A DNA stretch of 62,869 bases, filler included, from Aduncisulcus paluster (GCA_024181965.1; 6 parts of 6 records of this genome joined end to end with filler, not necessarily neighbours in it), one strand, 5' to 3'. Positions 7,586 through 60,000 are shown, counted from the whole stretch's first letter. The notes: a model not told the origin generated them from the sequence alone. Numbers and translations are program-made.

Positions 7586-10500
7586 ATGTTGAATGGATAT
7601 TTCATTATAAAATCGGAAACTGGAGAACTAATATATCATAAATGTTTTGTTCCTATTGAAAAGACAGGATTTATTCCACCTCATCAGAAAAAAGTTATAT
7701 GTATGTCTTATTAATGATAATTTCATATATTCTGTGTTATATTTTTAAAGTATACTAATTTGCTAAGCTAAATATTTGCAATTTCATTCATTTATTCAAT
7801 TATTTTTCCAATTTCTACATTTCAATCCATTCTAGACACTTCAACAAAGATTGCCCACCAATCGGCATGTTTAAATTCGGCTTCCTTTTTATGGGCATCT
7901 TTGGGTGCACGGTCGCGAGCTTCCGAAACAATCATTCATTTATATAATAACATCATTATCATATACCCTTCTCAGGCCCTCCCTTATGAAGCAAGATCAA
8001 AGGGATTCGGTTTTCCTGTGATGATAGTTGCTTCATTCAGGAATATGGATGTGAGAAGTGTCAATAATAGCCCTGTTCTTTATCCTTTTCGTCATCAACA
8101 TCTCATTAGTCATGAACCCTCAATTTTTAGCACAACAACACAAAATCAAAATATTTCTAATCCTCAAGCATCTGGCAAGCATTCATTTTCATCGATATTT
8201 GGAGCTGGACAACCTTCCCCCATTCTCCCTCCGCCCATGGAAAGATCCGAAGCTGCAGTCGGAATGAAAGATATCACTGGAGAAACAAAGGATGTTGGAT
8301 TTATATCCAAGGAAACAAAGAGCAGAAGGAGACTTTCTTTCAGTGGTCTTGCTCTTCCTCCCAAACCTCCTTCCCGCCCTCCAGGAGCTGATCACAAAGG
8401 AAAAGGAAGGGCTCAAATTGAGAGAGATTGGGAAAGAAGGCATGAAAAAGATCTAGATATATCAGCTTCGAAGGCAAGTGGATCTCCGTCTCCCTTCATT
8501 ATATTACTTCCAGCCTGCAGTCGAGATATCCAATTGCGAGTCACCATTGATATTTTATTGAGACACATGATATTGCAACACATCAAAGCATGTGGACAAG
8601 CCAAGCTTTGCAAGGGACTCCGCATGCATGGAATGACAATGAGAGGTGTTATCAGACGTCTGTTGAGTGGTTTCATGCCTGATGTGACAGATATCAAGGT
8701 GGTTGTTCCAAAACGCGATGAAAAGGGGAGAATTGTCAAAAGGAAGAGACAATCTTGGATTCAGGGAGAAGGTGGGAGAGGAGGAGAAGAATATGTCACT
8801 GAGTCCCTTACCATCGGGAAGTCCAATCCATGGGCATTTGCCCTTTATTCACCCGCATATTGTGCCTATGTCAAGGAATTGGTGCGATCTAGAGATATGC
8901 GGAAGAAGAAATGGTGGCATGTGCAAAGAAAAGACAAGATTGATCGAAGACGTCATCGTGAAGAGGAAGAACTCAGAGAACACATCAAAGATAGGAGAGA
9001 ACGAGGTGAAGATGTAGATATTTCTTCCCTCGAAAATGTTGGAAAGAATGCAAAGGGTGCAGGGAAAGGAAAGAAACCAGCACGCCAAGGAATATTTAAG
9101 TGTTGTGGTCGTTCTGCTGCCAATGCCTCATCCCCAAGTTCATTGGCTCGGTCTCGCAGAGAATCTGTGGATGATATCTCTCCAGATTCAAAGAGAAGAC
9201 AGTTTATCAAAGTATTCGAGGAATCCTCAGGAGCTGAGTATTCGGATCAGGACGAATCTTTGGAAGATTCAGACAGGAAATCACATAAATCTATTCATAG
9301 TTCTAAACGTGTTTCATCTGATTCCTTCCAAGATGAGGAATATTCTCTGTCAGATAATGCCCAAGCAAAGAAAGAAGAGTTCATTTCTGCTCGTCGTCAA
9401 GAAGAATCCCTTGAGAACGTCCATCCATTGTTTTCTGTGAGAATACCTGCCCCGGAACCTCCTCGTCGGCTCCCTCCCTCCCCTCCCAGTTATGATGTCT
9501 GTGTGGCTGAAATGTCTGGTTATTTTGAGAAACTATGGAGCAGTGGAACACTCACAATTACTAAAGGAAGGAAAAGTGAGGAAGAAGAGAAGCGAGAGCA
9601 AGAACAGAGAGACCTAAGGCATAAGGAAGAGAGTGACAGAATCGCGATAATTAGAAAAGAGAGAGAGAAAGCAGAGAAAGGACAAGAGGAAATAGGAGAA
9701 GAAGAGGAAGAGGAAGAAGAGGTTATGTATGAAAAAGAAGAGGAGGACTCTGACATTCAAGTTCATACAAGTCATAACAAGCACGAAATAGCATCGATTC
9801 CGTATCTTAAGTCGTCCAAAACATACCAATCATCTCCTATTGCTCCTCCATCCCCTCACAATACTTCTTCCTCTTCCTCTTCTTCCTCTCATCGAGCAGT
9901 TGCAGGTAATCTGCCTTTTTTTAGTGACAAGGGAGTCCATACTTGGTCACAAGGTAAAGTCAACGTCACAAAAGTTGACGAAGGTTTTGTTTCTTTCACC
10001 CCAGTATCTCCTCCAGCCTCAACGGCTGTGTGTATCCGGTCACAGAGTCATGGTGAAGCCGTTCCAGATTTAGAAATTGAGAAAAAACATAAAAATAGAG
10101 GATTATTAACATCTCAACAACATATCCATGATGAAATGGGTGAGAAAGACCGACATTCTATTCCCAAAACGAAGAGAAGCCAGGAAAAGAGAGAAAAACC
10201 TTTGAAGAAGAGCAGAGTTGTTGAATTTCACGCAGATGATGCTACAACTCGTCAAAATCATGAGAGAGGAAGAGCTTCGACAACAGGACCGTCTATGCCT
10301 CAGAATATACGAGAAAGAACTCGAATTCACTCGCCTATTTCGTTAACATATGATTCCATCCATATATATCAAAGGAAACGAACACCCTCATCGAAGGAAC
10401 TTGAGAGATCTCGTGATTCCTCTTCTCGACCAACCTCTCTTTCTGTCTCTGATGTGGTTGATATATCTCGAGTTCATTCCCTGGTACATATGTATTTGTC

Positions 10501-10915
10501 TCACAAAACAACAACTCACACTCGACTCAAAGTTCTGATGCAATATATTCTATTGCACGCACTATCCTTTGCTCTTCTTGGGGAACGAAGGGTGTTTACA
10601 GGAGAGAATAACGATGGAACGATGTTTTTGTCTCAAAGTCATACTCCATCAATAATGTTTGAGATTTTGCTTGACAAAAAGGATGTTGAACAGGAAGGGA
10701 GGTGGAAGGGGGTCAAAAGCGCCGAAGATGAACCTGAAACTTGTGTCCTAAGGATTAATTTATTATTAGATGGCCCTCTTATTGTGGTATGGTGTGATGG
10801 ACTGCCAATAGATGGCTCCACAACTCATACTCTTCAAGGAATGGGGTCAGCCAAGGCTTCCGCGGTTGGTCTCCTTCATGATTGTATGGAATGGTCATAT
10901 TTAAATGGATGGTGA
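7586..10915 (+). CDS. Hypothetical protein with longin-like N-terminus (2 exons: 7586-7700, 7836-10915)
   Basis: Exon 1 (MLNGYFIIKSETGELIYHKCF...) joins the 1004-aa ORF in frame across a GTATGT...CTAG intron. The start resembles the longin beta1-beta2 pattern; the middle is low complexity. Confidence 0.7.
7701..7835 (+). other. Spliceosomal intron (135 nt, phase 1)
   Basis: GTATGT donor and TCCATTCTAG acceptor; AT-rich; removal restores an ATG-initiated frame. Confidence 0.75.
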
Positions 10916-12567
10916 TTTGAAAATTGATATTTAGAGACCTTAGAAAATGTTTGACCACTGGTATGAGAATTCAATTCTCATGCCAAGACTTGGCAGCCAA
11001 GTTGTCAAGACTCTCCATCCTAAATAGATATTCCTGTGTAATAGAAAGATTTATATTATACATTTGAATAAAATTTATATTTTTGTTATTCCAATTTGGC
11101 AATATGCTATCAGCCGTCTCGGCTCAACACGGTGTTGATAAAGAATCTTTCTTTCTTCCATGTTTTGGCAAAGGTCCAATTCTTGTGGTCATTTTATTTG
11201 ATCTTTCAAACCTATATTTCCTTATGGCTTGATTTGTTTTGTTCTGATATGTTATTCAGACCTGATTTTTTGAATGGTTCATCAATCTTGCACTTTCCCA
11301 TTAAGATACAAAAATATTAAAATATAATTTTATCGTCATTATGGATGTTTTTTAATTATATTCTCTATATTTAACGAATAGTTGTTTAAAATAACCGATA
11401 ATAAGAACCCTCAATTGGAGTGCTCAAATTGATTTCTTCTTCGGAGTGAGTTAATTTTACTGGATAAAATGAACATTTTTTATATTTTGTTCACGAGATA
11501 ACTTTTATGAATTATATTAAACAGTTTTCTACCCACTATCCCCTTCCAGCTCATCCTATTAAGAGGATTCATGCTGAAGAAAGGTTGTTTTATGCCAACA
11601 TTGATTGTAAGGTTCCTAAATATGCTTCCATTGAAGCTAATTCCATTTCTGAGTAGAATATTATGACTGATTTTGTTATCATCCATTTTGACTCGACTTT
11701 TTTGATAATTATTTCTTTGACATGATAAAAAACAATCACCCCTTAACATATTCCAGATACTCTCACACGTGATCTTATTCTCTCTATTGCATACTCACCG
11801 TTTAATTGGAATACCTGTACTTTTTCTCTTTCTCGCGTAATATATACTATTTGATCTATATAATTATTGTTTATCCTTGTATCGGCACTTTCTCTCCCTC
11901 TATTTGGTAATATAATTTATTTGCATTTGCCATACAGTGTAGCATTCATGCATGATGAATCCTATTCATACACAGCCTAAAGCTCCAAGAAACTTGTCGG
12001 ATTGAGCAATTAATATTTCTATTTGGACTTAAAATCTGAAGATTTGATGTTTTTGAGCATCATTTTGCTTTTTTCTTTTTCTTGACTTTTTGAATGTTTA
12101 ATTTTCTCGATAATAAATCTTTTCAATGATAAATTTGATGATCAAAAATATTGATTTTTGCGGTAATTAATGATAGAATTGGTAAATCGGCATCATCTTG
12201 GTTTCTAGTTCTAATCTCATCTTCTTGGTATCAATCATTATTTTCAATGGTCGTCTTTGTGATTATTTAGAGTAATAATATGAATTAATGATCTAAATTA
12301 TTTCGCTGGGTTCTATTTTTTACGATGGATAATTATCTTGAATCTATGGGGAATAATTTTGTTACCATCGTCATGTGTGATTTATTTTGCTTTAATCGAG
12401 TTATATATAATAATATTATACCCTTTTCATTCTGGATTTTCTTGATATGTTTCATGTCATTCGTTGGCTGTTGTTTCAAAAGTGGTCTTTTTGGTGGTCC
12501 CTAAACGGATAAATTTGTTAAGAATATCTGAGAATTGGTTTTTTGAATCAATCTTTGTGAATTTTCA

Positions 12568-15127
12568 ATGTATTCCATCTCTCAATTTGCTGATCAAATG
12601 GAGTTATTTGTGGAGAAAAGTATGATGAAATTTACTTCTAACTCGCAACACAAACTCATTCAATCCAAATATTCTCGCTTAATTAAACTTTGTCGTAGAT
12701 GTCAAACCAATATATGCGGTCAACTTTCTCTGCTTCGTTTTCTTGAGAAAAAATATGAGACTCAGCAAGCTATTGATGAATGCCCTTCTTTATATGTATC
12801 TCCTGCGTTGTCAAATTCATATGCTTTTCTATATAATACCACTTTGAGTGATTGTCGAAGTTCTCTTCCCAAAACTCCTGATTTTGAGGATATTCCAACC
12901 AAAATAGATTCAAAGCTTCTGACTCCACAGTTTCATTCTTCTAGATTACCTATCATTTCGCCGAATCAGATGATTCATTATGGTGATTCTATCTCCCCTC
13001 CAGGCTCAGCTCCTTCTCCTATTCTGACTCAGTATCCTTCGTTATCAATTTTGAAAGAAATTCAACTTCAAACAAAAGCGTTGGTTGATTTAAATAATGA
13101 AAAATTGAAATTATCATATAAGATGCACCAGCTAAACGAAATTATTCGTAATTATGAAACGGCCAGGAGATCTTTCACAAACTTTCTTTCGAAATTGCTT
13201 ACTGTTCGATGTATTTTATCTTGTAAAAGTCTCACTCAATATCATCCAAATTTGTACACTCTTGATTTTTATATTGGTATCCCATTTGGGTTTTCTGATC
13301 CCTCGATTGTTGAAAGAATTACTTCTTTTCAAAAATCAATGAGTGATTCTATCAAAATCACAATGATGAATGAACGCAACCACTTTCAGGCGAAATACAA
13401 TCTTATCGTGAAAAAATGTTTTGGGGATGAATCTTCTTTTCAAAGGATATCTGGAGGCCCAAAAGACGAAAATTCTTCACGTTGTATGGATTTCATTGCT
13501 CATTCACCTTCTTTTGAACAGTGGATTATCTTAATGCGAAGGAAACTTCAATATTATTTCTTGGGGAAAAAGAAGTGTCACCATTCTTCTTCCAGTCGAG
13601 TTTCTAGTCCTCATCGAACCAAGAAATCACAATACATGCCAATCTTGTTATTAGTTATCCCTGAAGAAGAGATGGAAGCCATGTTATCAATGACATCTAT
13701 ATTTCCCCCGTCTAGTTACTCAGTCTTTGCCTCTTCCCTCAAACCAAAATTAGTTCACACTGTTTTGTCATTATTACTCTCTCTAATTTTAGATATTATT
13801 GAAATGAAAATTCATGTCTATATTTTATCATGTCCCATCAAGAGAAATATTTCTGAGATTTGTGTTCCATTACATCAACCATTGATCACACAGAGCAAGA
13901 AAGGCACCAATGTTATTCCATTACAGCTTCTTCCTATTGTGGATTTTTCAACAGATCGTTTTCCAATCGATAAAAGTCAAAATAATTCAAGAATACGTAT
14001 TGATCAAGAATCATGTGACCCTGTTGTTTCTGGAACTGTGATTGATCTTCCAACTCTCCGAAGTGATTCCCATTTTGACAGGTTATGTTGTCAATTTTTA
14101 TCTTATTTGTCAGCTTTACACCATAAAAGAGTGCAAGCCATGAATATTTGTCATTCTTTGTTTGTTCTTGATTCATCAATACGACATTATCACGAAAAGA
14201 AAAGAAAACAACCTCACTCATCCTCTTGTCCTTCAGACTTTTCAAAGAAAAATTACTTAAAGCAAAAATGTTCAAAGAAATTGAAACGATTCATATCAAT
14301 AAGGAGAGATCGCCAAAAAAAAGATCGTGGTCAGCGTGTTAAAAAAAATTCTACTGTAAAAGAATCCATGACCCCGAAACAAAAGACTAAAAAAATGTCA
14401 AAACATGGTAAAACTCGTCAGATTGAATCGGGTGTTGATTCTGAAGCAAGTCCTTCAATTATTACATCTCTAACGCCTGATATTATCCTAAATTCTTCAA
14501 TATTATCTCCTTCTAAAGAATTTGAGCCCAATCATTCAAAATCGGGTCTTCGGATTTGCCATTCGTCAATACTTCATTCCCCGCAAGTGGATTTATCTGG
14601 AGTTTCAGACTCTTTATTGACTCATTTTTCAAAAGAAGGTGTTGATTACACAATATCTACCAAAGAATCTACATTATCTGATAGTCTTCATCTTTTTGAC
14701 AGGTCCTCTTGTATGACCATGAAAGAAAGTGTAAATCAAATGGTTTCATCCATTTCGAATAATATTCTTTCAATATTACCATCATCTATTTATTATTCAG
14801 ATGACTCTCTTCCCGTCGTATTGAAGGAAACCAACCAAATTGTTCAAATGAATTCATTTATATCTCTTTTCTCGAACCTTGTTCATTCTTCACAACTTTC
14901 TTTTGAAACTATTTCTGACATGTTACGGCCTTTTGCTTATCTATCTTGGATCAATATACGGATGTGCCGACGACGTTCGTATATGATCCTGACAAAAAGG
15001 CATTATAAATGTATAAAACAAAAGCTTCCATCCTTATCTGAGCTCAAATATCTGGAACCAGATGATGTTTTTGTATTCTCTCCAGAGCAACGAAGTGGCA
15101 ATGACCGTTGGCTTTCGTCTCCATTTA
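12568..15127 (+). CDS. Hypothetical protein, truncated by contig end
   Basis: >850-codon ORF from ATG 12568; no family recognised. Confidence 0.7.
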
Positions 15128-15227
15128 NNNNNNNNNNNNNNNNNNNNNNNNNNNNNNNNNNNNNNNNNNNNTTAATTAATTAANNNNNNNNNNNNNNNNN
15201 NNNNNNNNNNNNNNNNNNNNNNNNNNN
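15128..15227. other. Artificial contig linker
   Basis: N-run + TTAATTAATTAA (stops in all six frames) + N-run, 100 nt. Confidence 0.98.
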
Positions 15228-15662
15228 CTCCTCTTCCTCTTCTTTGTCTTTGGGATCAAAGGGGTCACCAGAAGTTTCTTCTTCCTTTGATCCATGTCTG
15301 GCATTGTGGTCACAATCTTCACTCGCCTCATCTTGGTGGATTGCCCGATGAGGCGGTTCCTTGGCTGCCGGTTCTTGGTCTGTGCCTTCGACCTGTCTCT
15401 TTCCTGACCTGGGTAGCGGTAGAGACCGTTTTGTAGCCTTTTGACCACCTTCTTCTATGAGTGATTGTTTCTTTGAAGGGGTCGTCGGGTCTATCTCTTG
15501 GTCTGAGGTTTGGACCAAATCCGGGGATACGGAGATTGTCCGGCGTTTTGAAACAGGTATTACACCACAGGAAAATGATGGAATATTCCTAGGAACGGAG
15601 GGGGGGATCGGGATCATCGCGGTCATTCCTTCAGCAGGTTTATCCTCTGAGATTTCCTGCAA
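15228..15662 (-). CDS. Hypothetical low-complexity protein fragment (start uncertain, 3' truncated)
   Basis: Open frame running into the linker; it extends upstream to ~15760 without a clear ATG. Confidence 0.45.
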
Positions 15663-16024
15663 GGGAGGTTTGGGTTTTCGCCTTTTCCTTGCTTTTTTGA
15701 GGAATTTGGAGTTTTCTTTATGTTTCGAACATAGGAATATAAATTCCCAAACAAGACATTGCTAGCACAGATTAAGTTAATCTAATCGCAATATATGATT
15801 GCATAATTGCAATGTTACTCATCTTTACAACCGAAATAGAGCCAAAGTAAAAGTATAAAATACGAAATGAGATTATCCAAATGTTTTTAATTGAAGAGAT
15901 ATCAATTATTTTCGCTATTTTGGCTGAATTTGTGCACTTTTGTAATCATTCGACCTGAGCCAACAATTTTACCATAGATCATCTCGCAGCCCAAAATGAA
16001 ACCTTGGTTTTGTCGAAATATCAA

Positions 16025-17284
16025 ATGTCAAAAATCGAATTTACTGGTAGCGAAGTACTAACAGCCCATCTTCCCGCTGTGGAAGTTAAAAAAGATGTCT
16101 ATTGGGTGGGCTCTGTTCATGAAGACATCAGATCTTTCCATGGTTATGAAACACGCGATGGAACTTCATATAATGCTTATTTCATTAAAGATGAATTCCC
16201 AACTGTTATTGATTCAGTTAAACGTGAATTCGCAGGAGAGTTTATTGAAAGGATCAAATCCGTGTGTCCTCTTTCCGAAATCAAATATGTTATCTCAAAT
16301 CACGCGGAATATGATCACGCAAGTGCTATTCCAATTTTAATGAAGAATTTAGACCCTGAAGTACCAATTGTCACCAACAAGAAAGGTCAAGATGCTCTTG
16401 TTAGGAACTATCCTTCTCTCGCCGATTGTAAATTCCTTATTCTTAAACCAAAGGAAACTCTCACAATCGGAAAACGTACCTTATCTTTCTTGGCTACTCC
16501 ATTGGTGCACTGGCCTGAATCCCAATTTACTTACAGTGAATACGATGAGATTTTGTTTTCAATGGATGTCTTTGGGCAGCACATTGCTTCAGGAAAGCGT
16601 TTTGATGATGAATATGGCTGGGAAAGGGTTAAAGAAAGTGCCATTGAATACTATGCCAATATTGTTGCTTGCTATCGTCTCCAAACGGCTCGTGCTTTAA
16701 AATTGACTGCCAAACTTGGCAAAATCGATATGATTTGTTGTGCTCATGGTCTGATTATTCGTTCTCACGTTGACGAGATGATTAAGCTCTATCAGAGTTT
16801 TACTGATGGTTCTATCTATCGCCCCAAAGTGACTGTGGTTTACGATACTTTCTATCACTCCACTGAGGCCATGGCTCGTGCCATTCAAGAGGGTGCTCAA
16901 AGTATTGGAGCTGAAGTTATGAGGATTAAAGCTTCTGTCGGGGGTACCACTCAAGTAGCTCGCCATTGCTTTGATTCTAAGGCTACTGCTTGGGGATCTC
17001 CAACTTTGAACAGCGGAATGCACACTGAGGTGGCTGGTGTTCTCCATTATGCCAAGGGACTGAAGATTCTTGAGAAGAAACCTTCTGTCTCTTTCGGATC
17101 TTACGGATGGACTCCCGGAGGCACCAAAGTCATGGTTCAAGAACTTGAAAGCTGCAAATCTGACGTCATTGAGACCATTGATTGCAACTGGAGACCCACT
17201 GAAGAGATTCTTAAACGATGCTTCGATGCTGGGATTAAACTTGGAAAATTGGCTCTTGGACAAGAATTAAAAGACGAAGAATAA
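16025..17284 (+). CDS. fprA: Flavodiiron protein (A-type flavoprotein; O2/NO reductase)
   Basis: Metallo-beta-lactamase diiron motifs GTSYNAY, NHAEYDH, VHWPES, SMDVFGQH and AHG; flavodoxin domain YDTFYHSTEAMA, GSPTLN and FGSYGW. ATG at 16025. Confidence 0.95.
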   Translation: MSKIEFTGSEVLTAHLPAVEVKKDVYWVGSVHEDIRSFHGYETRDGTSYNAYFIKDEFPTVIDSVKREFAGEFIERIKSVCPLSEIKYVISNHAEYDHASAIPILMKNLDPEVPIVTNKKGQDALVRNYPSLADCKFLILKPKETLTIGKRTLSFLATPLVHWPESQFTYSEYDEILFSMDVFGQHIASGKRFDDEYGWERVKESAIEYYANIVACYRLQTARALKLTAKLGKIDMICCAHGLIIRSHVDEMIKLYQSFTDGSIYRPKVTVVYDTFYHSTEAMARAIQEGAQSIGAEVMRIKASVGGTTQVARHCFDSKATAWGSPTLNSGMHTEVAGVLHYAKGLKILEKKPSVSFGSYGWTPGGTKVMVQELESCKSDVIETIDCNWRPTEEILKRCFDAGIKLGKLALGQELKDEE

Positions 17285-18230: not shown

Positions 18231-20833
18231 ATGGCTCGAGGAGAGGACAAGAAAAAGGATACAAATAATGTATGTTTTTGTTATTTGTGCTATTGCTTTT
18301 TACATATTAGTTGATTTTTTGACATTTTTTATTGTTTCCCCATCTATCTTTATTATTATACATTTTTCCAATATATTCAACTGCCTCCATTGTATAGATC
18401 ACTGTGGTTGTAAGAGTGAGACCCCCAATTAGACACGAAATTGATAAAGGTGATTACCAAAGTGTCGTAAGGATAGGTGACGATAATAGAACAATTACCA
18501 TATGTGAAAATCCAAAAGCCCTTGCAAGTGGTGATCCTGCTGAATTATCTCTGTTTTTAACACATAATTATACGTTTGATTACGTTTATGGACCAAAATC
18601 TACACAAAGTGATGTATATAGCAATACTGCCCGACAAGCTGTCCAAAGTACACTCGAGGGATATAATGCAACCGTTTTGGCGTATGGTCAAACATCCAGT
18701 GGAAAAACTTTTACCATGGAAGGATATCAGGGTGAAAAAAGAGGTATAATACCGAGGTCTGTTGAAGAAGTATTCCAATTTATCGAGTCTTCTTCAGAAA
18801 AGCGTAGGAAATTCCTTGTTCGTGCATCCTACCTTCAGATTTATAAAGAAATCGTTTCGGATCTCTTGAAACCTGAAAGAACCTCATTGCATATCCGTTA
18901 TGACAAAACAAAAGGTACATTCGTTGAAGGTTTGAGTGAATGGGTTGTGAGATCCCCTCAGGAGGTTTATTCTCTCATTGAAAAGGGTGTTTCCACCCGT
19001 GCAACTGGAAGTACTTGGAAAAATCCTGATTCAAGTCGGTCACATGCTGTATTCATGCTTATTTGCGAGCAAAGTGAGATAATTTCACAGGAAGCCGATG
19101 ATGGGACCATCAAGGAGACCGAAGTCTTCAAGATCGGTAAGCTCAACCTCGTGGATCTTGCTGGAAGTGAAAGAGTGAAAGAAACTGGAGTTAGTGGCGA
19201 AAGATCCCAAGAAACAAAGTACATCAATCTGTCCTTGTTCACTTTATGTTTCGTTATTACGCAGTTGGTTGAAGGTAATGGTAACCACGTTAGCTACCGT
19301 GACTCAAAGCTTACCCGTCTTCTTGAAGACTCTCTTGGTGGTAATTGTAAGACATATTTCATGGCTATGGTTTCTCCTGCTATGATTAACTACCAGGAAA
19401 CTCTTGGAACTCTTAAATATGCCAATAATGCCAAGAAAATCAAGAACCATGCCAAGATCAACGAAGATCTCGACAAAGAGGCTCTTTTGAGGAAATACGA
19501 GAGGGAACTGAAGCAACTCCGTAAACAACTTGCGACTAAATCCCAACATGTCGTCGATAAACGGAGATTGTTGGAGATGGAAGAACAACGTAAGAGGGCT
19601 GAACAAGACCGTTTGGCTGCAATTAAAGCCCTTGAGCAACGTTCCCGTGAGTTTCTCCGTGAAAAACAAGAGAAGAGAAAGCTTGAGGAGCGTATTGCGA
19701 TGATGCAATCTCAAATGCTTCTTGGTGGTCGTACAATTATGGACACGAGTGAGTTCAAGTCAGCTGTGGCACAAGAGCATGCGAGAATCCAACAAAAGTT
19801 CCAACAGAGGATGTATGAGCTCGAGAAAGAGCGTCATTCCCTCCAGGAAGATATGGCCCAGGTCGACAAGTACAAAGAGCTCCTTGTAAAACAACGTGAC
19901 ATTATGACTGCCCTCACTAACAAGCTTGCTGAGCGTGATGAGAGCATTGCAGCCCTTGAAGAGGAGCTTTTGGCCTATGACAAGCATCAGGAACTCTTGG
20001 ATACTGCTGATGAGAAGATCTGTGAACTTGAAGATGCTCTGAAAGTGAAAGAGGAAGAGAATGATGATGTGTATGATCGACTTGATAGGACTGAGAAAGA
20101 GAAAAATGAGCTTGAGGAGTTGTTACGAGACAAACTCCCTCTGATGGTAAATAAGGAGATTGAGAAGCGTATTAAGCTCCTAAAAGAGAGGGTTGAGGAT
20201 GAAGATGCTGAACGAATGCTCGTATTGCTTGACAGAAAGCTTGATAGCTTTGCTGATGAAGAAGAGAAAGATGACCAGGGACTTGACGAGGAAGAAGAAG
20301 AGCCCCGTCTCTCTTCAGATGGTAAAGACTTGGCATCTTTGGACAGCGATGATGCTGATGAGAAGGAGAAGGGAGCTCTGCACTCTTCTGACCTATTTGA
20401 CAAAGACAGGCCCACTCCTACTCTTCAGGATAAGATTAAGCAACAAATGAATGATATGGTTGCCTCCGAGGAGTATGATAAGCTCAAAGAAGAGTTCACA
20501 AAGTATAAGGAAGAGAAAGAACGTGAAATTGAACATTTGAAATTATTGCGGAGCGAAAGTGACATTCACAAAACATATGACAAAAGAATGGGTGAATTTA
20601 TGGGGACCAAGAGAAGGGTTGACGATCTCGAAAAGAAGGTACGCAATTCCACGAAAGAGAAGGAAGCTCTCTTGACTATTTTTGAGAAAAAGATAAAAGT
20701 CATGGTCGACAACCTTGTGGATTTGTTGTCTTCTCCTTCTGACTCCCAAGTGGCTCTTTATCAATCTCATTCGTTACAGAGGCTTGTGAGCGTATCAATA
20801 ACCGCTTTAAAGAATAGCACAAATGGTCCTTAA
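18231..20833 (+). CDS. Kinesin with N-terminal motor and coiled-coil tail (2 exons: 18231-18269, 18398-20833)
   Basis: VVVRVRP, GQTSSGKT, SSRSH, LVDLAGSE and RDSKLTRLL motifs. Exon 1 (MARGEDKKKDTNN) splices to ITVVVRVRPP; there is an alternative in-frame ATG at 18171. The neck/stalk recalls a cilium-associated protist family (possibly kinesin-17; unverified). Confidence 0.95.
18270..18397 (+). other. Spliceosomal intron (128 nt, phase 0)
   Basis: GTATGT donor and TCCATTGTATAG acceptor; splicing supplies the missing ATG. Confidence 0.85.
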
Positions 20834-48960: not shown

Positions 48961-49595
48961 TCATTTCTTATCTGAAGTAATCCGATCACCAAGCCATTCT
49001 AATCCTTCATGGAGACCCAAACCATCCACAGCACATGTGCGGACGCATTGAATATCTCTATCTTTAAATGTGTGCACTTGGAGAATCCTCATGACATCCT
49101 CATAAGGCAAAGCGTGAGAAAGATCGGCTTTGTTGGCAAAAATGAGGAAAGGAACACCTTCTAGTTCGCTTTCTTTGGCCAATGAACTTAGTTCTTCGGC
49201 AGCTTCGGGAAGTCTTGGTTCGTCTGCAGAATCAACGACAAATATCAATCCTTCAATACCTTCGAAATAATGTCTCCATAAAGGACGGATTTGATCCTGA
49301 CCCCCAACGTCCCAAATGTTAAATTCAATATTTTTATAATTAACAGTTTCAAGATTGAAACCTATGGTAGGGTGGCACTTAACAAATTTTTCAAGCTTTA
49401 AATGACATAAAATTGCTAAAGACAAATGGATAAAATCAATTTACATAAAAAATGAATAAAAATACTAAAACTAAAAAGAAAAAAACCTTAAAGAGTCCAC
49501 TCTGACATACTACTTTTTCCAGCTGCATCTAAGCCAACCATTAAAATCTGAGTTTTCTTTTTCCTGCGGAATAATTTAGAAAAAAAACTTCCCAT
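48961..49595 (-). CDS. ARF: ADP-ribosylation factor family GTPase (2 exons: 49595-49511, 49415-48961)
   Basis: MGSFFSKLF (myristoylation Gly), GLDAAGKST (spliced), PTIGFN, WDVGGQ, ANKAD and TCA motifs. Confidence 0.95.
49416..49510 (-). other. Spliceosomal intron (95 nt, phase 1)
   Basis: GTATGT donor and TCCATTTGTCTTTAG acceptor; removal restores the P-loop GKST-IL. Confidence 0.93.
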
Positions 49596-49974: not shown

Positions 49975-52467
49975 ATGATTGAACACACTGTGTTAATAAT
50001 TGACTCTTCTGAATCTGTCGAAGAACAGAATTATGTTTCTCCATCAAGAGCTACTGTGCTTCGTAGATCACTATGCAGTTTTGTAAGGAAATATTTCACA
50101 TATTCGCCCATATCATCACTTAGTATTGTGCGATGTACCAATGGAAAAGCCTTTGTTATGTCACATTTATCTTCAAATATTAAGGAGCAACAACGTGCTG
50201 TAAAACGTGCAATTAAGGGTTTTAAAGGATCATTTTCGCTTGTAAATGGTCTATTAGCCGCACTTTCAGTTTTAAATCATTCTCCTATATATGCTAAACG
50301 TCGTGTTATAGTTGTCCCAACTTCATTATCCACTATTGACCCAGCCTCGACGACACAAACACAATTCACTCAGTTTCATAAAGAAAAGAAAGGGTCAGAT
50401 GACGGCCGAAGTTCTTCATCTATCCCTCCTTCAATTCTTCCTTCTTTGGGTTCATCGTCAGGGATGCCAACTTCCATGCATTCAGATACATCCCATCATT
50501 CTCATCCCTCGGGACATCGTTCTTTATCGTCCACGGCAGCGACTTTGAATGCTCATCATTCAAGAGATATGACAAGTCCAATATCCAAGCCTCTCTCGTC
50601 TGCTGATGTGATCACTTCCTCCTCTTCTTCGTCTGATCAACCAATGGAGCAGTCGTGTCCATCTCTCTTCGATGTGATCCATCTTGCATCCCTTGCCCAC
50701 ACAACGATCGATATCGTTGGGTTTGGAGCCCATGTACACACCTATCGTCAGTGTACAGAGCAATGTAATGGAATATACAGGGTTGTTGGTCCTGGGTATG
50801 CCATTGAAGATGTGCTTGAAGGCCTTGTGTCTGTGAAGGAAGAAGAGGAAGAAGGGATTATTGAAGAGAAGGCAGAATATGCCAAGGATAGTGGGAAAGA
50901 AATACATCATAGGGATAGCAATTCGGCATACTTATCTTCTTCATCTCGTCTTCCTGATGGTGTTATTGTCAAGACAGAGGATTCAGCATTGTCAAAGGAT
51001 ATAACCCGTGAGTCAGATGGGACACAGCGAGCTTCATACTATCTTCCTGCTGCCGACACTCTGCCTCATCTCATTCCAATTGGTTTTCCGCCCCAAACTA
51101 TATCGGCCCACCCTGCTCTGTGTGCTTGTCACTCAAAGCTTGTCTTCTCTCAATACAAATGCCCTCGGTGCGATGCGTGTCTGTGCTCAGTGCCTTGTGT
51201 GTGCACTGTTTGTGGGCTTCTTCTGTCGACTTTCCCGCATATAGCTCGAGTTATGGGAAGAGAAGATGAGGAGAGAAGACGTACGAGGAAAGAGAAAGAG
51301 AGAAGGATAGTTATGGAAACGTGTCCAGTCGGAAAAAGCAGAACTTCCTCTAAAAAAGAAGAGGAAGAGGAAGAGGATAGTGATATTGGACGGAAAGAAA
51401 AAAGGAAAGAGGAGGAAGAAGAAGAAGATAAAGGAATTCTTGAAAAAGAAACTATTTTCTCTAGTGCGTTGTGGATTAAAATAGGCCAAGAAAGTCCATC
51501 TGATTGGAGCAGGTGGTCATTGCGTGCAAAGAAAAAAGAAGATGAGACAAGAATGGATCTTTCCAGGTTTGAAGGATCAACACCAACAATCAAACAAGAA
51601 CATTCAAAGATATCTATTGAAACATCCAGAAATAATGATCGAATCTCGTTAACATCCAATCCTTATGTTTCTCAGTTTAAACTCACTGAATCCACCACTT
51701 TCCCCATTCTTTCCTCTGATTCTATGGATAATGATGCTCTGAGATGTTGTTTGTGTCTTCGTGGGGCCTGTAGATTATCCCATATCAATCATTCCTCTTC
51801 CTCTTCCTCTTCCTCTTCCTCTTCCTCTTCCTCTTCTTTGGATCATGATGGAGAAGAAAGGGATGAGAATGGGTATAGATGCATCGAGTGTGGATCTGTG
51901 TTGTGCTCCATGTGTGTGGATGTGCTTAATGTGTCATATTTGGCATGCCCTGGATGTAAAAACATTGTGATGGAGTCGTGTGAAGCACTTGGGAATGCTG
52001 AGTGTTTGGGGGATGAGGAGGAAAGGGAACAACTTCGGATGAGAATTAGGGAGAAAGAGAAAGAGAGGAAGCGGGAAGAAGAGGAGAGGGAGAGAGAGAT
52101 TATTGAGAGGATGAAAAGAAGAGAGAGAGAAGAAAATGAAGAAAGACAAAAATCGTTAGTTCAGAGAGAGAAAGAGAGAGAGAAGGAAAGAAGAGAGAAA
52201 GAAGAGGCTAAGAGACTTCAAAAGAAACAGAAAAAGGTAAAGATTGAAAAGAAATCAAAGTATAAAAAGAAAGAGCCAACTGAAGAGCAGAAAAGGAAAG
52301 AGAGAGAGCAACGGGAAAGAGAGAAAGAAAGACAAAGAATCAGAATGTTATATAAAGACGAAAAATTTGACATTGAGGCCAATCTCAATGAAAAGGACTA
52401 CGAAATTGATATTAGTTTCAATATGGATCCTGCATTTTATGCCGTTGTGCAATCTTTTCTGAAATAG
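49975..52467 (+). CDS. GTF2H2: TFIIH subunit p44/Ssl1 with long low-complexity insertions
   Basis: vWA start (LIIDSSESV, PSR, YFTYSPISSL); IGFP; CACH..YKCPRC..CSVPCVCTVCGLLL..PHIAR; C-terminal RING-like YRCIEC..CSMC..CPGC. Confidence 0.9.
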   Translation: MIEHTVLIIDSSESVEEQNYVSPSRATVLRRSLCSFVRKYFTYSPISSLSIVRCTNGKAFVMSHLSSNIKEQQRAVKRAIKGFKGSFSLVNGLLAALSVLNHSPIYAKRRVIVVPTSLSTIDPASTTQTQFTQFHKEKKGSDDGRSSSSIPPSILPSLGSSSGMPTSMHSDTSHHSHPSGHRSLSSTAATLNAHHSRDMTSPISKPLSSADVITSSSSSSDQPMEQSCPSLFDVIHLASLAHTTIDIVGFGAHVHTYRQCTEQCNGIYRVVGPGYAIEDVLEGLVSVKEEEEEGIIEEKAEYAKDSGKEIHHRDSNSAYLSSSSRLPDGVIVKTEDSALSKDITRESDGTQRASYYLPAADTLPHLIPIGFPPQTISAHPALCACHSKLVFSQYKCPRCDACLCSVPCVCTVCGLLLSTFPHIARVMGREDEERRRTRKEKERRIVMETCPVGKSRTSSKKEEEEEEDSDIGRKEKRKEEEEEEDKGILEKETIFSSALWIKIGQESPSDWSRWSLRAKKKEDETRMDLSRFEGSTPTIKQEHSKISIETSRNNDRISLTSNPYVSQFKLTESTTFPILSSDSMDNDALRCCLCLRGACRLSHINHSSSSSSSSSSSSSSSLDHDGEERDENGYRCIECGSVLCSMCVDVLNVSYLACPGCKNIVMESCEALGNAECLGDEEEREQLRMRIREKEKERKREEEEREREIIERMKRREREENEERQKSLVQREKEREKERREKEEAKRLQKKQKKVKIEKKSKYKKKEPTEEQKRKEREQREREKERQRIRMLYKDEKFDIEANLNEKDYEIDISFNMDPAFYAVVQSFLK
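51793..51837 (+). repeat. (TCCTCT)n coding microsatellite (poly-Ser)
   Basis: About 7 perfect hexamer copies inside the p44 ORF. Confidence 0.9.
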
Positions 52468-52646
52468 GTCATGAGCGTCATAATAAATGTATAAATATAT
52501 TCCTCTTTTATTATTATATGAATTATTTTAATTTCTTTTGATATAGTACAATATTATCCATATGATAATAAATGGTTCCTCTTTTTTATTTTGGGGGGGC
52601 ATCTAAGAATTGATATTGTATTTATCGCCTGAGGTTTACTTTTATT

Positions 52647-53582
52647 ATGGATTCACAGTCGATAACCGCCTTGATATTTTCTATAATCAGCTCTTTAACC
52701 ATACTTTTCTTTATCTACGCCTTTAAGTTCATTCGAAGTTCCTGTTTCAGATTTTTCTTTATATTTATGTATTTATATCTTCTTTCTCCCGGGTATGTAT
52801 GGGCATTTAAGGATAATATTACATCAGTAACCAACTACGGCCATCCTTGGATTTCTTGGGCTATTTGTGGTAGTTGGTTAGCAACAACGACTTCTCTCTC
52901 TATATTCTCATTTTTTATATTGAGAACTTCCATCTTCCCCATTATTGATCCAATGAATCAAAGAAAACGAAATGGGCTTGAACTTAATATTATTTTTTCT
53001 GACGATGATCTGTCACACTGGGCACTGTGGGTTTTCCTTCTTTTATTTATGGTTTTTCCTGGTGCTATTGCTGTTTTTGGGGATTTTGTTGGCACGACAA
53101 CCACTATCTTCCAAAACGGGGCTAAATATCGTGATGGATTGAACGCATCGTTGTTTTCTTCCATCTATTCTGGCATATTCTTATTATATTGCATCTATGA
53201 TATCGCTATGTTCGTTGCACAAGTTAACAAAGGATGTCCGTTATATCCTGAATCACTCGGCTCGTCTTTCAAGATCCCAATATGGATATATATATTATAC
53301 AATCTTCTTTATATCGTTATTTTATTGCTTATAAGTATATTCAGGTATGTTGCGGGCGACGACGTAACCAGTTCTTCTCTGAATATGGAGCACTCTTTAT
53401 TTATTATTTTATCGATTCTACCAATGTTTTTCCCAGTTATCTTCTGTTTTCTTGCTAAATCTATTCATTCTTATAACGCTTTATGTAAGCGAGGAGTTTC
53501 GGAGGAGCTCTTGGCTAATGGAAACAAAACTTCACTTCCTGCTCTCAATGACTCGCCTAAGAAGAAAGTATCGTGGGAATAA
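52647..53582 (+). CDS. Multi-pass (about 7 TM) membrane protein
   Basis: 311 aa with about seven hydrophobic segments and a polar C-terminal tail. Confidence 0.75.
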   Translation: MDSQSITALIFSIISSLTILFFIYAFKFIRSSCFRFFFIFMYLYLLSPGYVWAFKDNITSVTNYGHPWISWAICGSWLATTTSLSIFSFFILRTSIFPIIDPMNQRKRNGLELNIIFSDDDLSHWALWVFLLLFMVFPGAIAVFGDFVGTTTTIFQNGAKYRDGLNASLFSSIYSGIFLLYCIYDIAMFVAQVNKGCPLYPESLGSSFKIPIWIYILYNLLYIVILLLISIFRYVAGDDVTSSSLNMEHSLFIILSILPMFFPVIFCFLAKSIHSYNALCKRGVSEELLANGNKTSLPALNDSPKKKVSWE

Positions 53583-53974
53583 CGCTCATTTTTTTAATAG
53601 AGATAACAATATACCTCTAAATATTAAGCTTTGAGAAGAATTTTATTTATTTTTATATTTCTTTTCATTCTGTTTGACATACATATGCATCAAATCTTCC
53701 TTTTTCATATTATTATTTCTAATTTCTCGGGGGTTAATATATTTAACATTATTTGCAAGTATTTCAATGATATTTGTTGTTTTAATGTCTTGATGATTTC
53801 AAATTTTCAAATTTTATTTTGCGTGATGATTTTTTTTTTTTTTTTCTATAATATTTCTATATAATTACTTACTTTTAATACTACAATCATTGTAGCTACA
53901 CTGGGTCTGTCTTGGAAAGGAAACAAAATATATTGTTACAATATAGAACGGATTGACACACTAAAAATAAATTA

Positions 53975-54120
53975 TATAAAAAGGAACACGAGAAGTAGGA
54001 ATGTCAGCACCTCGAATGAAAATAATGGAGTTGAGCTGAAAATGTCGACTGTTCTTATTACGCCACTTTCCTTTCCCTTCAATCCCACACAATACAACAT
54101 TACACATATCTATAGGAAGA
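53975..54120 (-). pseudogene. Remnant third copy of the beta-sandwich repeat unit
   Basis: Out-of-frame LPIDMCNVVLCGIEGKGKWRNKNSRHF immediately after the stop at 54122. Confidence 0.7.
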
Positions 54121-54121
54121 A

Positions 54122-55556
54122 TTATTTCCATGGAAGTTGAGATAATCGTTCAACTACAATGGTTTCCTCTGGCAGAGTAAATACAAGGGAGGAGATCCAG
54201 AAACTTCTACTATTCATATTACACCACATTCCTTTCCCTTCAATCTCACACAATACAACGTTATCCAAATCAATAGGAAGGAAATGCCATTCAAACCAAT
54301 GTTTCGGTCTTATGAATTCATACTTCTTGCATGTTTTCTTACCATCACAATCAGTAAAAGTGAAGAGAAGAGAGGGTGAACTATCATACTTATCCACACA
54401 GATAAAAGCACCTTTCATAGGACTAGGTGATGGGAAAGGTATAGAAAGATGGGATAAGGATACTTTATCTTCCCCTTTTAACATTTTTTGTGCATTTGAA
54501 CTCTGATCATAATTCAAAGATTCCTTACTCCTCGAATCATCTTTGCACTTAACAATTGAGAATGAAGGATCTACAAGCTTTGGATCATCTCGTGGAATGG
54601 GAATAGAATCTTCATCTTCCCAATCTACTTCCTTAAACTCTGGTTTCACAACTTGAGTTTCAGACCATAGTTTCTCACTGGCTTCACGAGATTTGATTTC
54701 TTCAGGGGTTTCTTCTCTAATGAAAACAAGGGAACGGATTCCAAAATACTCTTCCTCTCTTCCTTTCCCTGTAATCTCACACAGAACAACATCAGGGAGA
54801 TCAACAGGAAGGAAATACCAAGGAAAACCTTTAAATCCAGGAAACTCGTATTTCTTGGATGTTTTATCACCCTTTGAAGATATGAGAGTGAAGATAAGGT
54901 GTGATGGAGGTAAAGAATGAGTAAAACCATAAAGACAGATATAAGCCCCTTTCATTGGGGAAGACGAAGAGAAAGGAATGGAGATATGGGTAAAATTTCC
55001 ATCATTATCCTCTCCTCTCATCATCTTTTGTGCTTCAGAATTCTGATCGTACTCTTCATCTCCTACTTCCTTGGTTCNNNNNNNNNNNNNNNNNNNNTCT
55101 TCCTTTCCCTGTAATCTCACACAGAACAACATCAGGGAGATCAACAGGAAGGAAATACCAAGGAAAACCTTTAAATCCAGGAAACTCGTATTTCTTGGAT
55201 GTTTTATCACCCTTTGAAGATATGAGAGTGAAGATAAGGTGTGATGGAGGTAAAGAATGAGTAAAACCATAAAGACAGATATAAGCCCCTTTCATTGGGG
55301 AAGACGAAGAGAAAGGAATGGAGATATGGGTAAAATTTCCATCATTATCCTCTCCTCTCATCATCTTTTGTGCTTCAGAATTCTGATCGTACTCTTCATC
55401 TCCTACTTCCTTGGTTCCATCTATTGCTTTGATAGTTGGAAATGCTGCGCCCTTAATATTGGGGGAATCTCTAGGAATTGGACAAGAATACCAATCTCCT
55501 TCATGAATAAACTCAGGTTCTACAGTTTGAATAATAGAATCTGTGGATGAACTCAT
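54122..55556 (-). CDS. Lineage-specific protein of two tandem DOC/APC10-like beta-sandwich repeats (~364 aa once the gap duplication is collapsed)
   Basis: Repeat unit PIPRD.P...YDQ.S.AQKM..GED...H.SIPF.S.SPMKGA.IC...KKYEF...W.FLP.DL..VVLCEI.GKG...I.SLVF occurs twice; ATG at 55556. Confidence 0.8.
54758..55417. other. Scaffold gap with duplicated flanks (probable unmerged overlap)
   Basis: 54758-55077 appears identical to 55098-55417 around 20 Ns; collapsing it gives one clean ORF. Confidence 0.88.
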
Positions 55557-56111
55557 TTGAATAGAGATAGAATATCTTATCTAAAAAATAAAAACAAGCA
55601 GAATAATGAATGAATCCGGTTAAAATATTTCTTAATATACATTTAATAAAAGATATGACATATAGTAAACATACGATTTGCTTGTTTGCCAAGAAAAAAT
55701 GGACATCGGTCTCAGCCGCCAACAACTGAACAAGCAACCCTTCAATAGATAAGATTGGAAATTTAAAAAAACATATATAAACGAGTTAAATGCTGGTAAA
55801 CGATAAAAACATGTTTTATTTTCATTTCCATGCCATGGTGTTTATTCTCGATATCTCAGGCTTTTGGAGACCCATCAGGACTGGATATAGTTCCATTTCA
55901 CGTGTTAAGAACATTTATGAACGATTTCAATGCTATTCAATAACATGGATATATTTCCATTTCATTTCTATCCTTATCCTTGCCTTTCTGTTCATTTTCA
56001 CTTGCTTTTGCTTACAATCAAAAATATCAAGAACTCGGAATACGATGTTATACATATGTCTGTATACTACTACGAATCTAATCCCCTGATGCTTCATGGA
56101 ACATGACATTT

Positions 56112-56211
56112 NNNNNNNNNNNNNNNNNNNNNNNNNNNNNNNNNNNNNNNNNNNNTTAATTAATTAANNNNNNNNNNNNNNNNNNNNNNNNNNNNNNNNN
56201 NNNNNNNNNNN
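56112..56211. other. Artificial contig linker
   Basis: N-run/TTAATTAATTAA/N-run. Confidence 0.98.
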
Positions 56212-56387
56212 GTATCAAAAATAGCCCTGAGACGAGGGGAAAACACGGAATAAAGGGATGTCACAGCGGATTGAGATGATGTTCTCCTGATTGTTGTGAG
56301 TAATTGTTCAAGTTCAGAGCATGGGTTTGAATGTCTAGAAACACTAGGATTTGATGATTCAAGTAGTAATGACTTTGACGCTGACAT
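56212..56387 (-). CDS. 5' end of a hypothetical protein, truncated
   Basis: ATG 56387 after AT-rich DNA; open into the linker. Confidence 0.5.
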
Positions 56388-57038
56388 TTAAGTTGTATTT
56401 TAAGGCCAAGAATTCTTTTTAATGTTATTCTTTTTTAATATTTTCGAAGTGTTTAGGCTTTAATCTTAATTTTCATTCAGTGTGAGGGTTCAAAATAAAA
56501 CCATGAAGGAAGGCATATGAGGGAAATATGACAAATGAAATGGAATAAATTCATAAGATGGACACAATTATCGATAAGAACGTGCAAGATTCACGGCATT
56601 ACTTCGTTGAGGAATGTCGAAATTGAAAAACACAATAATACCCACAAAAACATACTATTATAGGCAAATCAAACCAAGTTTACGTATTAATGGGAAAAAC
56701 TATTTGTTTCAAGCTCGGAATGAAATAGAATTTTGGACAAAAGATTTGAAATTTTTGAAAACATCTTTCTGGCCTTAGAGTAACATATTCATTCCATGTT
56801 ACAACTTGAAATGTTAGAATAATATAATTTAACGATATCAAATTTTCATCTTAGATCTTAATGGACACAACAATGACTTTTTCCATTTCTTGTCTGAATA
56901 GACATTATTTATGGAATTTGTTATGTGGAAATTCGCAATAAAATTGAATAAAAACTTTAAGAATGATATTATTGCCCGCTTTAATATTCAATTCGAGTGA
57001 TTGACCTTTTCGACGATCTTTTTGAATGATGAAAGAAA

Positions 57039-60000
57039 ATGGACAGAGCGAAACGTGCTAAAATCATTGTTTTAGGTTCTATGGATGATATTAAAGTATG
57101 TATTTATCCTGTTTTCTCACAGTATTTCCCCGATACAGTATTTCTTATCCTTCTCTTTCCATTTTTAGTATTTTGACCTTTCCTCATGGATAAAACGATG
57201 TACAGGGAAGTCTATACCTTTTTCTCGAACATATATGGTGAAATCTCTACCATTTCTAAAACTTGAATTCAACTCTTTTCCACATCAACTGATATTCACA
57301 TTTGCTTCGGATCTCAAAAAGAATGGTATCATATTATCAAAAGCTAAATTTGATATTATCTTATATTATATCGATATTACAACAATCAGATTTGACATGA
57401 CGAAATTTCACCAAATCTTTCCATCTAAAACTGTTTCTTATCTCATATCACATAATATTCCGATATTTTTCATCTTTTCTCACCCAATAACAAGCCAAAC
57501 ATATGATAAAACAGTCAATATTGGCAAAATGATTGCTGAATTTTCTCATATTGTCGAATCGTCTCTCGTTTCCTCTGGAATTTCCAGAATTTATCATGAA
57601 TATCTATTCTCAAACGCTTGTATTTCGTCTGGTTGCCATAGTTTCAGTGCTAATAGAACAATTCAACAACATGGGTTCAATATGGATAAAAATGATATCA
57701 TTCTCCACGTTTTGAGATGGTATTTCACTCCATCGGCGTCTTTATCGAAGAGTATAAACTTACAATCAAACCATTCCAGCGACTTGGAAGATATTTCGAG
57801 TGTTTATGGCAAAAGAAGATATCACACCTCAAGTTTTGACCCCATAACCTCAGAAAAAAGCCCCCAAATTTCACTTTTAATGGATGATTTCAGCCCTTCT
57901 ATATTCGGCGATAGAATTTCTTCCCTTTTAGAAACGTCTCAACAGATTTGGACAGGAATCGGATCTCGTATCACGACATCTAATATTTCTTTCGATTCAG
58001 CTTCATTGATTTCTCCTCTCTCCCCCTTTTTCTATTCTGATTCCTTGACATTTGACCATTTCTACCAGCGTTGTGAAGAAAGAGGAGGAGAAGAAGAATC
58101 TTCGTTCTCTGTATCTGATGATCATCGTGATATCACAGGAAGTCATGATATCACAAGAAATACTTTACATTCGCCTCAAAGAAAGGAGAGAAATAACAAT
58201 ATTCTTGATCACACGTCCTCCTTTTCCTCGTTCTCTCCTTCCTCTTACTCCTCTTCTTCGAAGCCTTGTCTCATTCACGATATCACAACCATTTTTGATT
58301 ATTCCAAAACAACTGCTCGTCCTTCTTCTTCTCGTTCTTTCGATAAATCCAGGAAGAAATTCATTCCTTTCAATTCCTCACATACCATCTCATCTATCAG
58401 CCGTCCAACATCCTCTGTACATCGTCCAACGTCCTCTGTACATGTGCAAACTGAGCCAACGTATCTCTCAGAGCTCTCAGAATTATCTTCAGGGCGTAAT
58501 TCTTACCGATCAATCGATTATTTGATCAAATCACTCAATATGGCCCCTTCTGTAACATTCATTCATGACAAACAAACGTCCCACGATGGGAGAGCCACTC
58601 TTTATGAGGGAAAACCATTCCGTCCCTTAACTTCGCACTTTCGACAATCGTCAACTATGTTTTCAGATGGCAATTCACATCAAATATCATGTGAATGTAA
58701 GGATTCTGGACCTCATGATTCATTCCAATATTATCCAGGGTCATCCTCTTCTTTGTTGAGCCAATATTATGGTAGAAAGGGAGTAATGAGTCAGTTTCAA
58801 ATAACTCTTGCCCACGTGGCCAAGCATTTGCCTCCTGATTCTCAAGCAAAACTGTTCTTGTCGTGCAAAAACTCCATGCTATGTTTTATGCGATTGTCAT
58901 CTGAGAAATACCTTCGAACATGCTTTGAGATTGATCTTGATGGCATTATTGCTCCATCACATTATATGCATAAAGGAGAAGGGGAAACAATATCGAACAA
59001 AGGTGATTCAAAGGAATCTTGTCTGCAAACTCAATCAAAAGTTAAACAACAGGGTGAATCTGAATGTTCCGATCCTATTTCTCCTGTTGTTTTGCCTCAT
59101 TCATATCTAAAGATTGTTATCAAATCAATCACAAGCCAAGATATTCGTCCTGATCAATACACAGCGATTGTGACATTCATTGTTAGCAAAATGAAGAGAT
59201 TCTGTATGCTCTCGTTGAAGTCTCTTGATATTTCCATCCCTAAGTTTTTCCCTCTTGAATTATCTGAACGTATTCTTCGAGTTTTCACAATGACCTTGAT
59301 GCCACTTCAGCTGTATATCCAAGCACCAGCAACCCCGGGGCTCTCTCAACTCATGATGGGACGATTGGCTGTGCTTGATGTTGGTAAAGTGGCCATCGAA
59401 CGCTTTGGATCAGTTCTGCAATATCCTCCTTGTACCTGTAGTAGAAATTCTTCTGAGTTGCTGAGGAAGAGAAAGCAAGTAGGAGAGAAGAAAGACATTG
59501 AAAAAGAACTGGATGGAAATGAGGTAGAATCAATCTGTCAAGAAAATGTAGTTATTTCTCATCTCAAATCAATTTTTGACAATGATAAGTGTTTGTTCCT
59601 AGGGTTAGAGAAGATCATTGTCGATGAAATTATTTTCTTACCCATTCAACCCCATTCTCCTTCTCCTTCTTCGCCAACAGTCCTTCCGAGTTCAGAGAGT
59701 TCAGATATTGCCAGTTTAATTAGGTTTTTTGAGGCTCTTTCCATGTATCCTTGTCTTTCTGAGATATCCATCAATCGTGTGACATTCATTGCTGACACAA
59801 CCACAATTCACAGAAACCCCTCAGATTTCAAGACTGTTGGTGAGTGTTTCTTTCCTGAAGAGATTCCTTGCCATGCATCTCAAGCCTTGTCCAAACCATC
59901 TCTACAAAAACATTCAATACTAATACCAAGTGTTAATGGTGTTGGCGACAAGACTATTATTTCATCATCTTCTTCTGTGGGTGAAAGTGAAAGAGAAAAG

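Follow-up and report, generated by a model that had tools for sequence, protein, structure and literature searches.

In a window of 62,869 nt from Aduncisulcus paluster (Fornicata), by which we mean the whole stretch of DNA analysed, six contigs with artificial linkers between them, we find that the introns of protein-coding regions begin with GTATGT and carry the hexamer TCCATT shortly before a terminal TAG. TCCATT is a specific, position-restricted and non-random 3' element of these introns. We propose, at a probability of roughly 0.45, that this element is branch-related and that its single A is most likely the branch adenosine, placed beside the 3' splice site. The sample comprises four introns from about 20 genes on six short contigs (n = 4), and these four are every coding-region intron recognisable there; we therefore regard the observation as a statistically supported variant of the acceptor-proximal intron element of metamonads, and as a lead rather than proof. 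A. paluster is a free-living fornicate with a draft genome of 29.4 Mb at 39.1% GC, for which 11,743 introns are predicted per 15,316 proteins (PMC9933649). Our literature search turned up no paper on the intron signals of A. paluster, and PMC9933649 gives the intron count only.

The four introns had been pointed out in a first-pass annotation of the window. Direct re-extraction returned the same letters and positions and bore out the claim that a GTATGT donor and a TCCATT ahead of the 3' AG are common to all of them (4/4). The gene structures are given below, with positions of the TCCATT adenosine counted from the last intron base (-1).

7586..7700, plus strand: exon 1 of ADUPG1_008086, 38 codons + 1 nt (MLNGYFIIK...QKKVI), spliced product identical to P0123
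7701..7835, plus strand: intron I1, 135 nt, phase 1, GTATGT...TCCATTcTAG, donor at 7701, acceptor caaTCCATTcTAG ending at 7835
7826..7831, plus strand: TCCATT of I1, A at -7
18231..18269, plus strand: exon 1 of a kinesin gene, 13 codons, MARGEDKKKDTNN
18270..18397, plus strand: intron I2, 128 nt, phase 0, GTATGT...TCCATTgtaTAG, donor at 18270, acceptor ccTCCATTgtaTAG ending at 18397
18386..18391, plus strand: TCCATT of I2, A at -9
49511..49595, minus strand: exon 1 of an Arf-like GTPase gene, 28 codons + 1 nt (MGSFF...GLDAAGKS)
49416..49510, minus strand: intron I3, 95 nt, phase 1, GTATGT...TCCATTtgtcttTAG, donor at 49510, acceptor taTCCATTtgtcttTAG ending at 49416
49425..49430, minus strand: TCCATT of I3, A at -12
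57039..57095, plus strand: exon 1 of ADUPG1_008120, 19 codons, MDRAKRAKIIVLGSMDDIK
57096..57168, plus strand: intron I4, 73 nt, phase 0, GTATGT...TCCATTttTAG, donor at 57096, acceptor ttTCCATTttTAG ending at 57168
57158..57163, plus strand: TCCATT of I4, A at -8

I1 and I4 are each supported by a deposited gene model together with the reading frame. Removal of I1 (7586-7700 joined to 7836-10915) yields 1064 aa with full-length identity to P0123 (NCBI ADUPG1_008086, a hypothetical protein of A. paluster), and removal of I4 (57039-57095 joined to 57169-62184) yields 1690 aa identical to P0121 (ADUPG1_008120, also a hypothetical protein of A. paluster). The list of open reading frames (ORFs) has the I1 gene begin at 8021, yet a further 83 codons upstream of that ATG are free of stops, a stretch that extends through the acceptor. 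From the ATG at 7586 starts an exon of 38 codons, which stop one base short of the GTATGT of I1. In the case of I2, exon 2 of the kinesin gene begins right at the acceptor TAG, where it reads ITVVVRVRPP, and is covered by a Pfam kinesin match; its earliest internal ATG lies 106 codons in, past the P-loop. Where kinesin homologues among the matches listed have their best stretch from query residue 2-3, that point lies at least ~10 residues into their own protein. The exon at 18231-18269 joins exon 2 in frame, and removal of I2 restores the kinesin N-terminus. The A. paluster kinesin record itself is not among the 150 protein representatives listed for this query, and none of the 89 pattern stretches that the query matched in metagenomes was confirmed as a relative. 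For I3, the match of exon 2 alone to the Arf model does not begin until position 30, and addition of exon 1 upon removal of the intron gives a complete Arf-like GTPase of 179 aa with its N-terminus restored. All four thus have GT...AG boundaries whose removal restores the frame or a known protein (two deposited proteins exactly, two N-termini). Based on these gene structures, we take all four units to be genuine introns of the ordinary U2-type GT-AG spliceosomal kind. They are 73-135 nt long, consist of 49-57% T and 7-15% G, and all lie inside the first 115 nt of coding sequence. No further coding introns were found in the window: apart from two genes that extend past a contig end, none of the others is preceded by a long open stretch lacking an ATG, and looser donor or motif patterns gave only scattered matches inside ORFs and no further credible intron. 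As a side observation on the first of these genes, exon 1 of ADUPG1_008086 (7586-7700, plus strand) reads MLNGYFIIKSETGELIYHKCF, which we presume to resemble longin or roadblock-type N-termini; the rest of the protein has no Pfam match.

A comparison of all 5- to 8-mers shows that TCCATT is the sole hexamer common to the four introns apart from two T-run hexamers. It is present in one copy per intron, starts 10, 12, 15 and 11 nt before the end of the intron (I1 to I4) and is followed by 1, 3, 6 and 2 nt and then TAG. Counted from its A, 6, 8, 11 and 7 nt remain, in agreement with the 6-11 nt of the first-pass annotation, and in none of the introns does another AG fall between TCCATT and the AG that is used (0/4). 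The same annotation had seen no ACTAAC at the position of the motif, and this holds as well: with up to one mismatch allowed, ACTAAC occurs in one of the four introns, only at -78 of I1. In the window as a whole TCCATT is not enriched (88 sites versus 74.9 expected from dinucleotide shuffles) and, as had been cautioned, it also occurs in intergenic DNA, including two sites upstream of 28961 (28931 and 28942). TCCATT-N1-6-TAG is found at 8 sites versus 4.83 expected, four being the introns and 4 lying elsewhere, and GTATGT at 25 sites versus 17.9 expected. The composite pattern GTATGT-N20-300-TCCATT-N1-6-TAG occurs 4 times, a number that none of 1000 dinucleotide shuffles reached (0 units in 799 shuffles, 1 in 183, 2 in 16 and 3 in 2; mean 0.22). 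Any hexamer of at least 3 letter types shared by the last 20 nt of all four introns arose in 14/200,000 shuffles of the intron interiors and in 31/200,000 shuffles of the last 40 nt, and TCCATT itself was the shared hexamer in 0 of the 200,000 trials under either scheme. Because the introns were defined by deposited proteins and homology, without reference to TCCATT, selection by motif is not the explanation.

Relatedness among the introns does not account for the motif either. We considered a duplicated intron family (introner) and rejected it: the 6 pairwise local alignments of I1-I4 are within the shuffle range, no score exceeds those of more than 97.4% of shuffles, and 13/500 equal that of the best pair, I2/I3. 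Given that the introns are otherwise dissimilar, the motif is no remnant of shared ancestry. Two further candidates were set aside, namely an 11-mer common to I1 and I2 (ATTTTTCCAAT), whose score is equalled by 290/500 shuffles, and an intron fold joining donor and motif (z-scores of 0.66, 0.49, 0.24 and -1.47 for I1-I4).

TCCATT consists of pyrimidines flanking one invariant A, and the position of this A, -7 to -12, brackets that of the branch A of Giardia and Trichomonas, which lies 7 nt from the 3' splice site, and that of Spironucleus vortens. CTRAY is present in one of the four introns, only as CTAAT at -78 in I1, and in 0/4 within the last 40 nt. In intron-poor lineages, according to PMC2483917, an invariant 5' consensus accompanies a strong branch consensus. 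Since the two occur together in such lineages, and TCCATT is the sole conserved candidate, a branch site at TCCATT is the most likely single explanation. Under this proposal, the acceptor would be defined by the sequence-specific TCCATT, then 1-6 nt, then TAG; the lone A would serve as the branch adenosine, and the first AG after the branch would be taken as acceptor. The layout, in which the branch site adjoins the 3' splice site, would be that of Giardia, Spironucleus and Trichomonas, with another hexamer and looser spacing (6-11 versus a fixed 7-8 nt). Because pairing with the canonical U2 box would be weak, recognition may lean on proteins (SF1/U2AF/SF3b-like) or on a changed small nuclear RNA (snRNA). 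A search of the window for snRNA genes found none at gathering scores and none at E up to 5.

The parallel that the first-pass annotation had drawn with Giardia and Trichomonas is accurate with respect to both the Giardia donor and the acceptor-adjacent branch motifs of the two. In the sections of PMC6679479 and PMC6260720 that describe introns, those of Giardia follow VTATGTT...VCTRACACRCAG; those of S. vortens follow GTAAGTY...RCTAACAARHTAG, with a branch A one nt further than in Giardia and Trichomonas; and those of T. vaginalis follow GYAYGY...RCTAACACAYAG, where 7 nt (rarely 8) separate the branch A from the acceptor and a shift of the branch motif abolishes splicing. The A. paluster introns resemble this fused type in that they come from a related lineage (Fornicata/Metamonada), have a GTATGT-type donor (4/4), have, no more than about 12 nt from the acceptor, a conserved hexamer that contains a single key A, and are few, short and biased to gene 5' ends; the TAG at the 3' end is a further likeness to Spironucleus. 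They differ in having TCCATT and not CTRAC, in the 6, 8, 11 and 7 nt that follow the A in place of an invariant 7-8 nt, in the absence of ACAC filler, and in the absence of an end-joining fold such as has been proposed for long Giardia and Spironucleus introns.

The likeness to other intron systems is more limited. U12-type introns, as summarised in PMC2846911, have the 5' sequence /RTATCCTTT, a branch sequence UCCUUAACU near the acceptor and no pyrimidine tract. The A. paluster introns share with them a TCC core, a short distance from the 3' splice site as well as a strong consensus, and with UCCUUAACU, about 10-15 nt from the acceptor, TCC and position agree whereas ATT and TTAAC differ: A stands where U12-type sites have U, there is no AAC, and the 3' regions are T-rich. 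Their GTATGT is followed by C, T, C and A, TCC is at +5 in 0/4, and a U12-type identity is ruled out by this donor in 4/4. The degenerate yUnAy type with a polypyrimidine tract, found in intron-rich eukaryotes (PMC2367711), is similar in its GT-AG ends, T-rich 3' regions, yUnAy 16-50 nt upstream and TCCATT inside human tracts, and is unlike the A. paluster introns with their exact hexamer at a fixed place and invariant 6-nt donor (4/4). Lineages that use WCTRAYN (yeasts, C. merolae, E. cuniculi, Giardia and Trichomonas in section 6 of PMC2483917) likewise have an invariant donor and, within a narrow range of distances, a single conserved 3' motif; however, the sole conserved motif of A. paluster, TCCATT, is off at the C, T and R positions.

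Besides the small sample (n = 4, about 20 genes, six contigs), several observations weigh against a branch site at TCCATT. The canonical partner in branch recognition is the GUAGUA of U2, and complementarity of the TCCATT A to this box is 2.0, 1.0, 3.0 and 2.0 of 6 for I1-I4, which ranks it 20/38, 22/25, 4/15 and 3/9 among the adenosines of each intron. All four introns have yUnAy candidates at -16 to -50; those of I3 have their adenosines at -21/-16, and I4 has CTTAT at -22 followed by a pure pyrimidine run. I1 holds TACTAAT at -78. The spacing from motif to AG varies, unlike that in Giardia and Trichomonas. TCCATT has C at -2 from its A, where U is the best conserved position; in PMC2367711, U is found there in 74.6% of mapped human branch sites, a T-to-C change at -2 in LCAT causes intron retention and disease, and human introns have TCCATT within the pyrimidine tracts that lie downstream of their mapped branch points. 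The strong-branch lineages covered in section 6 of PMC2483917 all fit WCTRAYN, of which TCCATT misses three positions. Lastly, two candidate introns in 5' untranslated regions (5'-UTRs) have no TCCATT near their AG.

55581..55674, minus strand: candidate 5'-UTR intron, 94 nt, GTATGT...T-run...TAG, 24 nt before the ATG at 55556
from 56655, minus strand: possible 5'-UTR intron with another kind of acceptor, GTATGT upstream of an ORF on the same strand, which has its start at 56377 and continues past the contig end

The candidate at 55581-55674 contains no TCCATT; it has TTCATTCATT, whose A's stand at -31 and -27, as well as a long T-run, and if it is spliced, the upstream ATG (55706) yields only an 11-codon upstream ORF. 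Downstream of the GTATGT at 56655, TCCATT is found after 111 nt, but the next ~75 nt are without AG. Should these candidates be real, TCCATT would either lack universality or be replaceable by TYCATT at normal branch distance. Elsewhere on the minus strand, a fifth GTATGT...TCCATTAG unit of 168 nt (53515-53682) is situated 3' of a gene that ends at 54122 on the same strand, and runs antisense to the final part of ORF 52647-53582; this unit is probably due to chance.

The first-pass annotation had offered two readings of the motif, a rewired branch site and a new 3' splice-site element. These are borne out in part: a specific 3' element exists, in that the hexamer is non-random and is the only one shared by otherwise unrelated introns, and no CTRAC is nearby; what weighs against a rewired U2 is the poor fit to the canonical box, the place of TCCATT in human tracts and the upstream yUnAy candidates. 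These same candidates point to the main alternative, one that is possible, if doubtful, in which TCCATT is an acceptor-proximal element other than a branch site, either part of the pyrimidine tract or a site for U2AF, a Mud2-like or another protein, and the branch lies upstream at a degenerate yUnAy recognised by canonical U2. The presence of yUnAy at -16 to -50 in 4/4 introns favours such an upstream branch, the end of I4, CTTAT(-22)-CCTTCTCTTTCC-A-TTTTT-AG, resembles a textbook branch site with its pyrimidine tract, and the T-rich, G-poor composition of the introns suits a tract. In intron 1 of human EEF1A1 and intron 1 of G22P1, two cases in PMC2367711, TCCATT is inside the tract downstream of the mapped branch point, and with the number of introns annotated per protein (PMC9933649), A. 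paluster may have too many introns for a strict branch motif to be required. Yet a tract element needs no exact hexamer with an invariant A, and the same six letters are present in 4/4; moreover, the upstream yUnAy candidates have no sequence or distance in common.

A more specific version of the branch-site explanation would make UCCAUU a branch consensus of A. paluster outside WCTRAYN, 6-11 nt before the acceptor and read by a changed snRNA, and this we consider very improbable. The snRNA could be a rewired U2 or could carry a U12-like AAGGA that pairs with UCC and UU around a bulged A, the AAGGA stretch of U12 being the pairing partner of UCC/UU. TCCATT fits the canonical U2 box poorly, it has TCC and the short acceptor distance in common with the U12-type branch consensus (PMC2846911), and Giardia snRNAs are described in PMC6679479 as U2/U12 hybrids. 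On the other side, the donor is GTATGT and not RTATCCTTT in 4/4 introns, the U2 candidates of Spironucleus retain a branch-interacting sequence by which the A of CTAAC is left bulged, and the part of PMC2483917 on strong-branch lineages records no departure from WCTRAYN. We think it very improbable that the motif is a small-sample coincidence, with T-rich intron ends sharing a hexamer by chance and no motif genome-wide. TCCATT is common in the window, TCCATT-N1-6-TAG recurs at the 4 non-intron places, and the fifth unit (53682-53515, minus strand) has no gene context; against coincidence are the shuffle tests (14-31/200,000 and 0/1000) and the definition of the introns by proteins and homology, not by the motif.

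The window has the following layout, and its linkers (N44-TTAATTAATTAA-N44) place stops in all six frames.

1-15127: contig
15128-15227: linker
15228-23111: contig
23112-23211: linker
23212-38431: contig
38432-38531: linker
38532-45390: contig
45391-45490: linker
45491-56111: contig
56112-56211: linker
56212-62869: contig
47761-47837, plus strand: tRNA-Val (anticodon TAC), no intron; no other RNA family in the window reaches its gathering score

Genes at contig ends are truncated (for example, 12568-15127, 37135-38431, 21599-23111 on the minus strand, and 45491-47030). Several other features of the window deserve mention. The plus-strand gene at 16025-17284 encodes a flavodiiron (FprA-type) protein whose best relatives are an A. 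paluster paralogue (66%) and then a Dysnectes protein (43%); the remaining best relatives are at 40-45%, and those with names are bacterial or archaeal FprA. These relatives fit the lateral acquisitions described for fornicate oxygen defence (PMC6934886). The contig at 38532-45390 holds broken ORFs on both strands, one of them with a reverse-transcriptase match (43100-43630, minus strand; PF00078, E 5.5e-08), and is likely a decayed retrotransposon. The minus-strand genes 54122-55556 and 2-5275 each have a 20-N gap (55078-55097 and 1419-1438, respectively) flanked by near-identical protein repeats; these are duplications introduced during assembly or else genuine tandem repeats that the assembler has collapsed. 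At 45570-47030 on the plus strand, an ORF that is open to the contig start encodes a dual-specificity-phosphatase-like protein (PF00782, below cut-off). The active-site motif of dual-specificity phosphatases contains a catalytic Cys, in place of which the corresponding stretch here reads VYDENGDG, and the product may be a pseudophosphatase.

The contact between the GUAGUA of U2 and the branch site is among the most conserved RNA-RNA contacts in eukaryotes. If A. paluster does use an invariant hexamer where its parasitic relatives have CTRAC, this would bear on whether a branch motif can drift from U2 complementarity, and also on whether the fused branch-acceptor layout is ancestral in metamonads or convergent. 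Should UCCAUU prove to be read by a changed snRNA, A. paluster would provide the first natural instance of a branch site and an snRNA that co-vary within a spliceosome of the major type. In addition, GTATGT-N-TCCATT-N1-6-TAG would be a sharp search pattern for improving the fragmented annotation of A. paluster.

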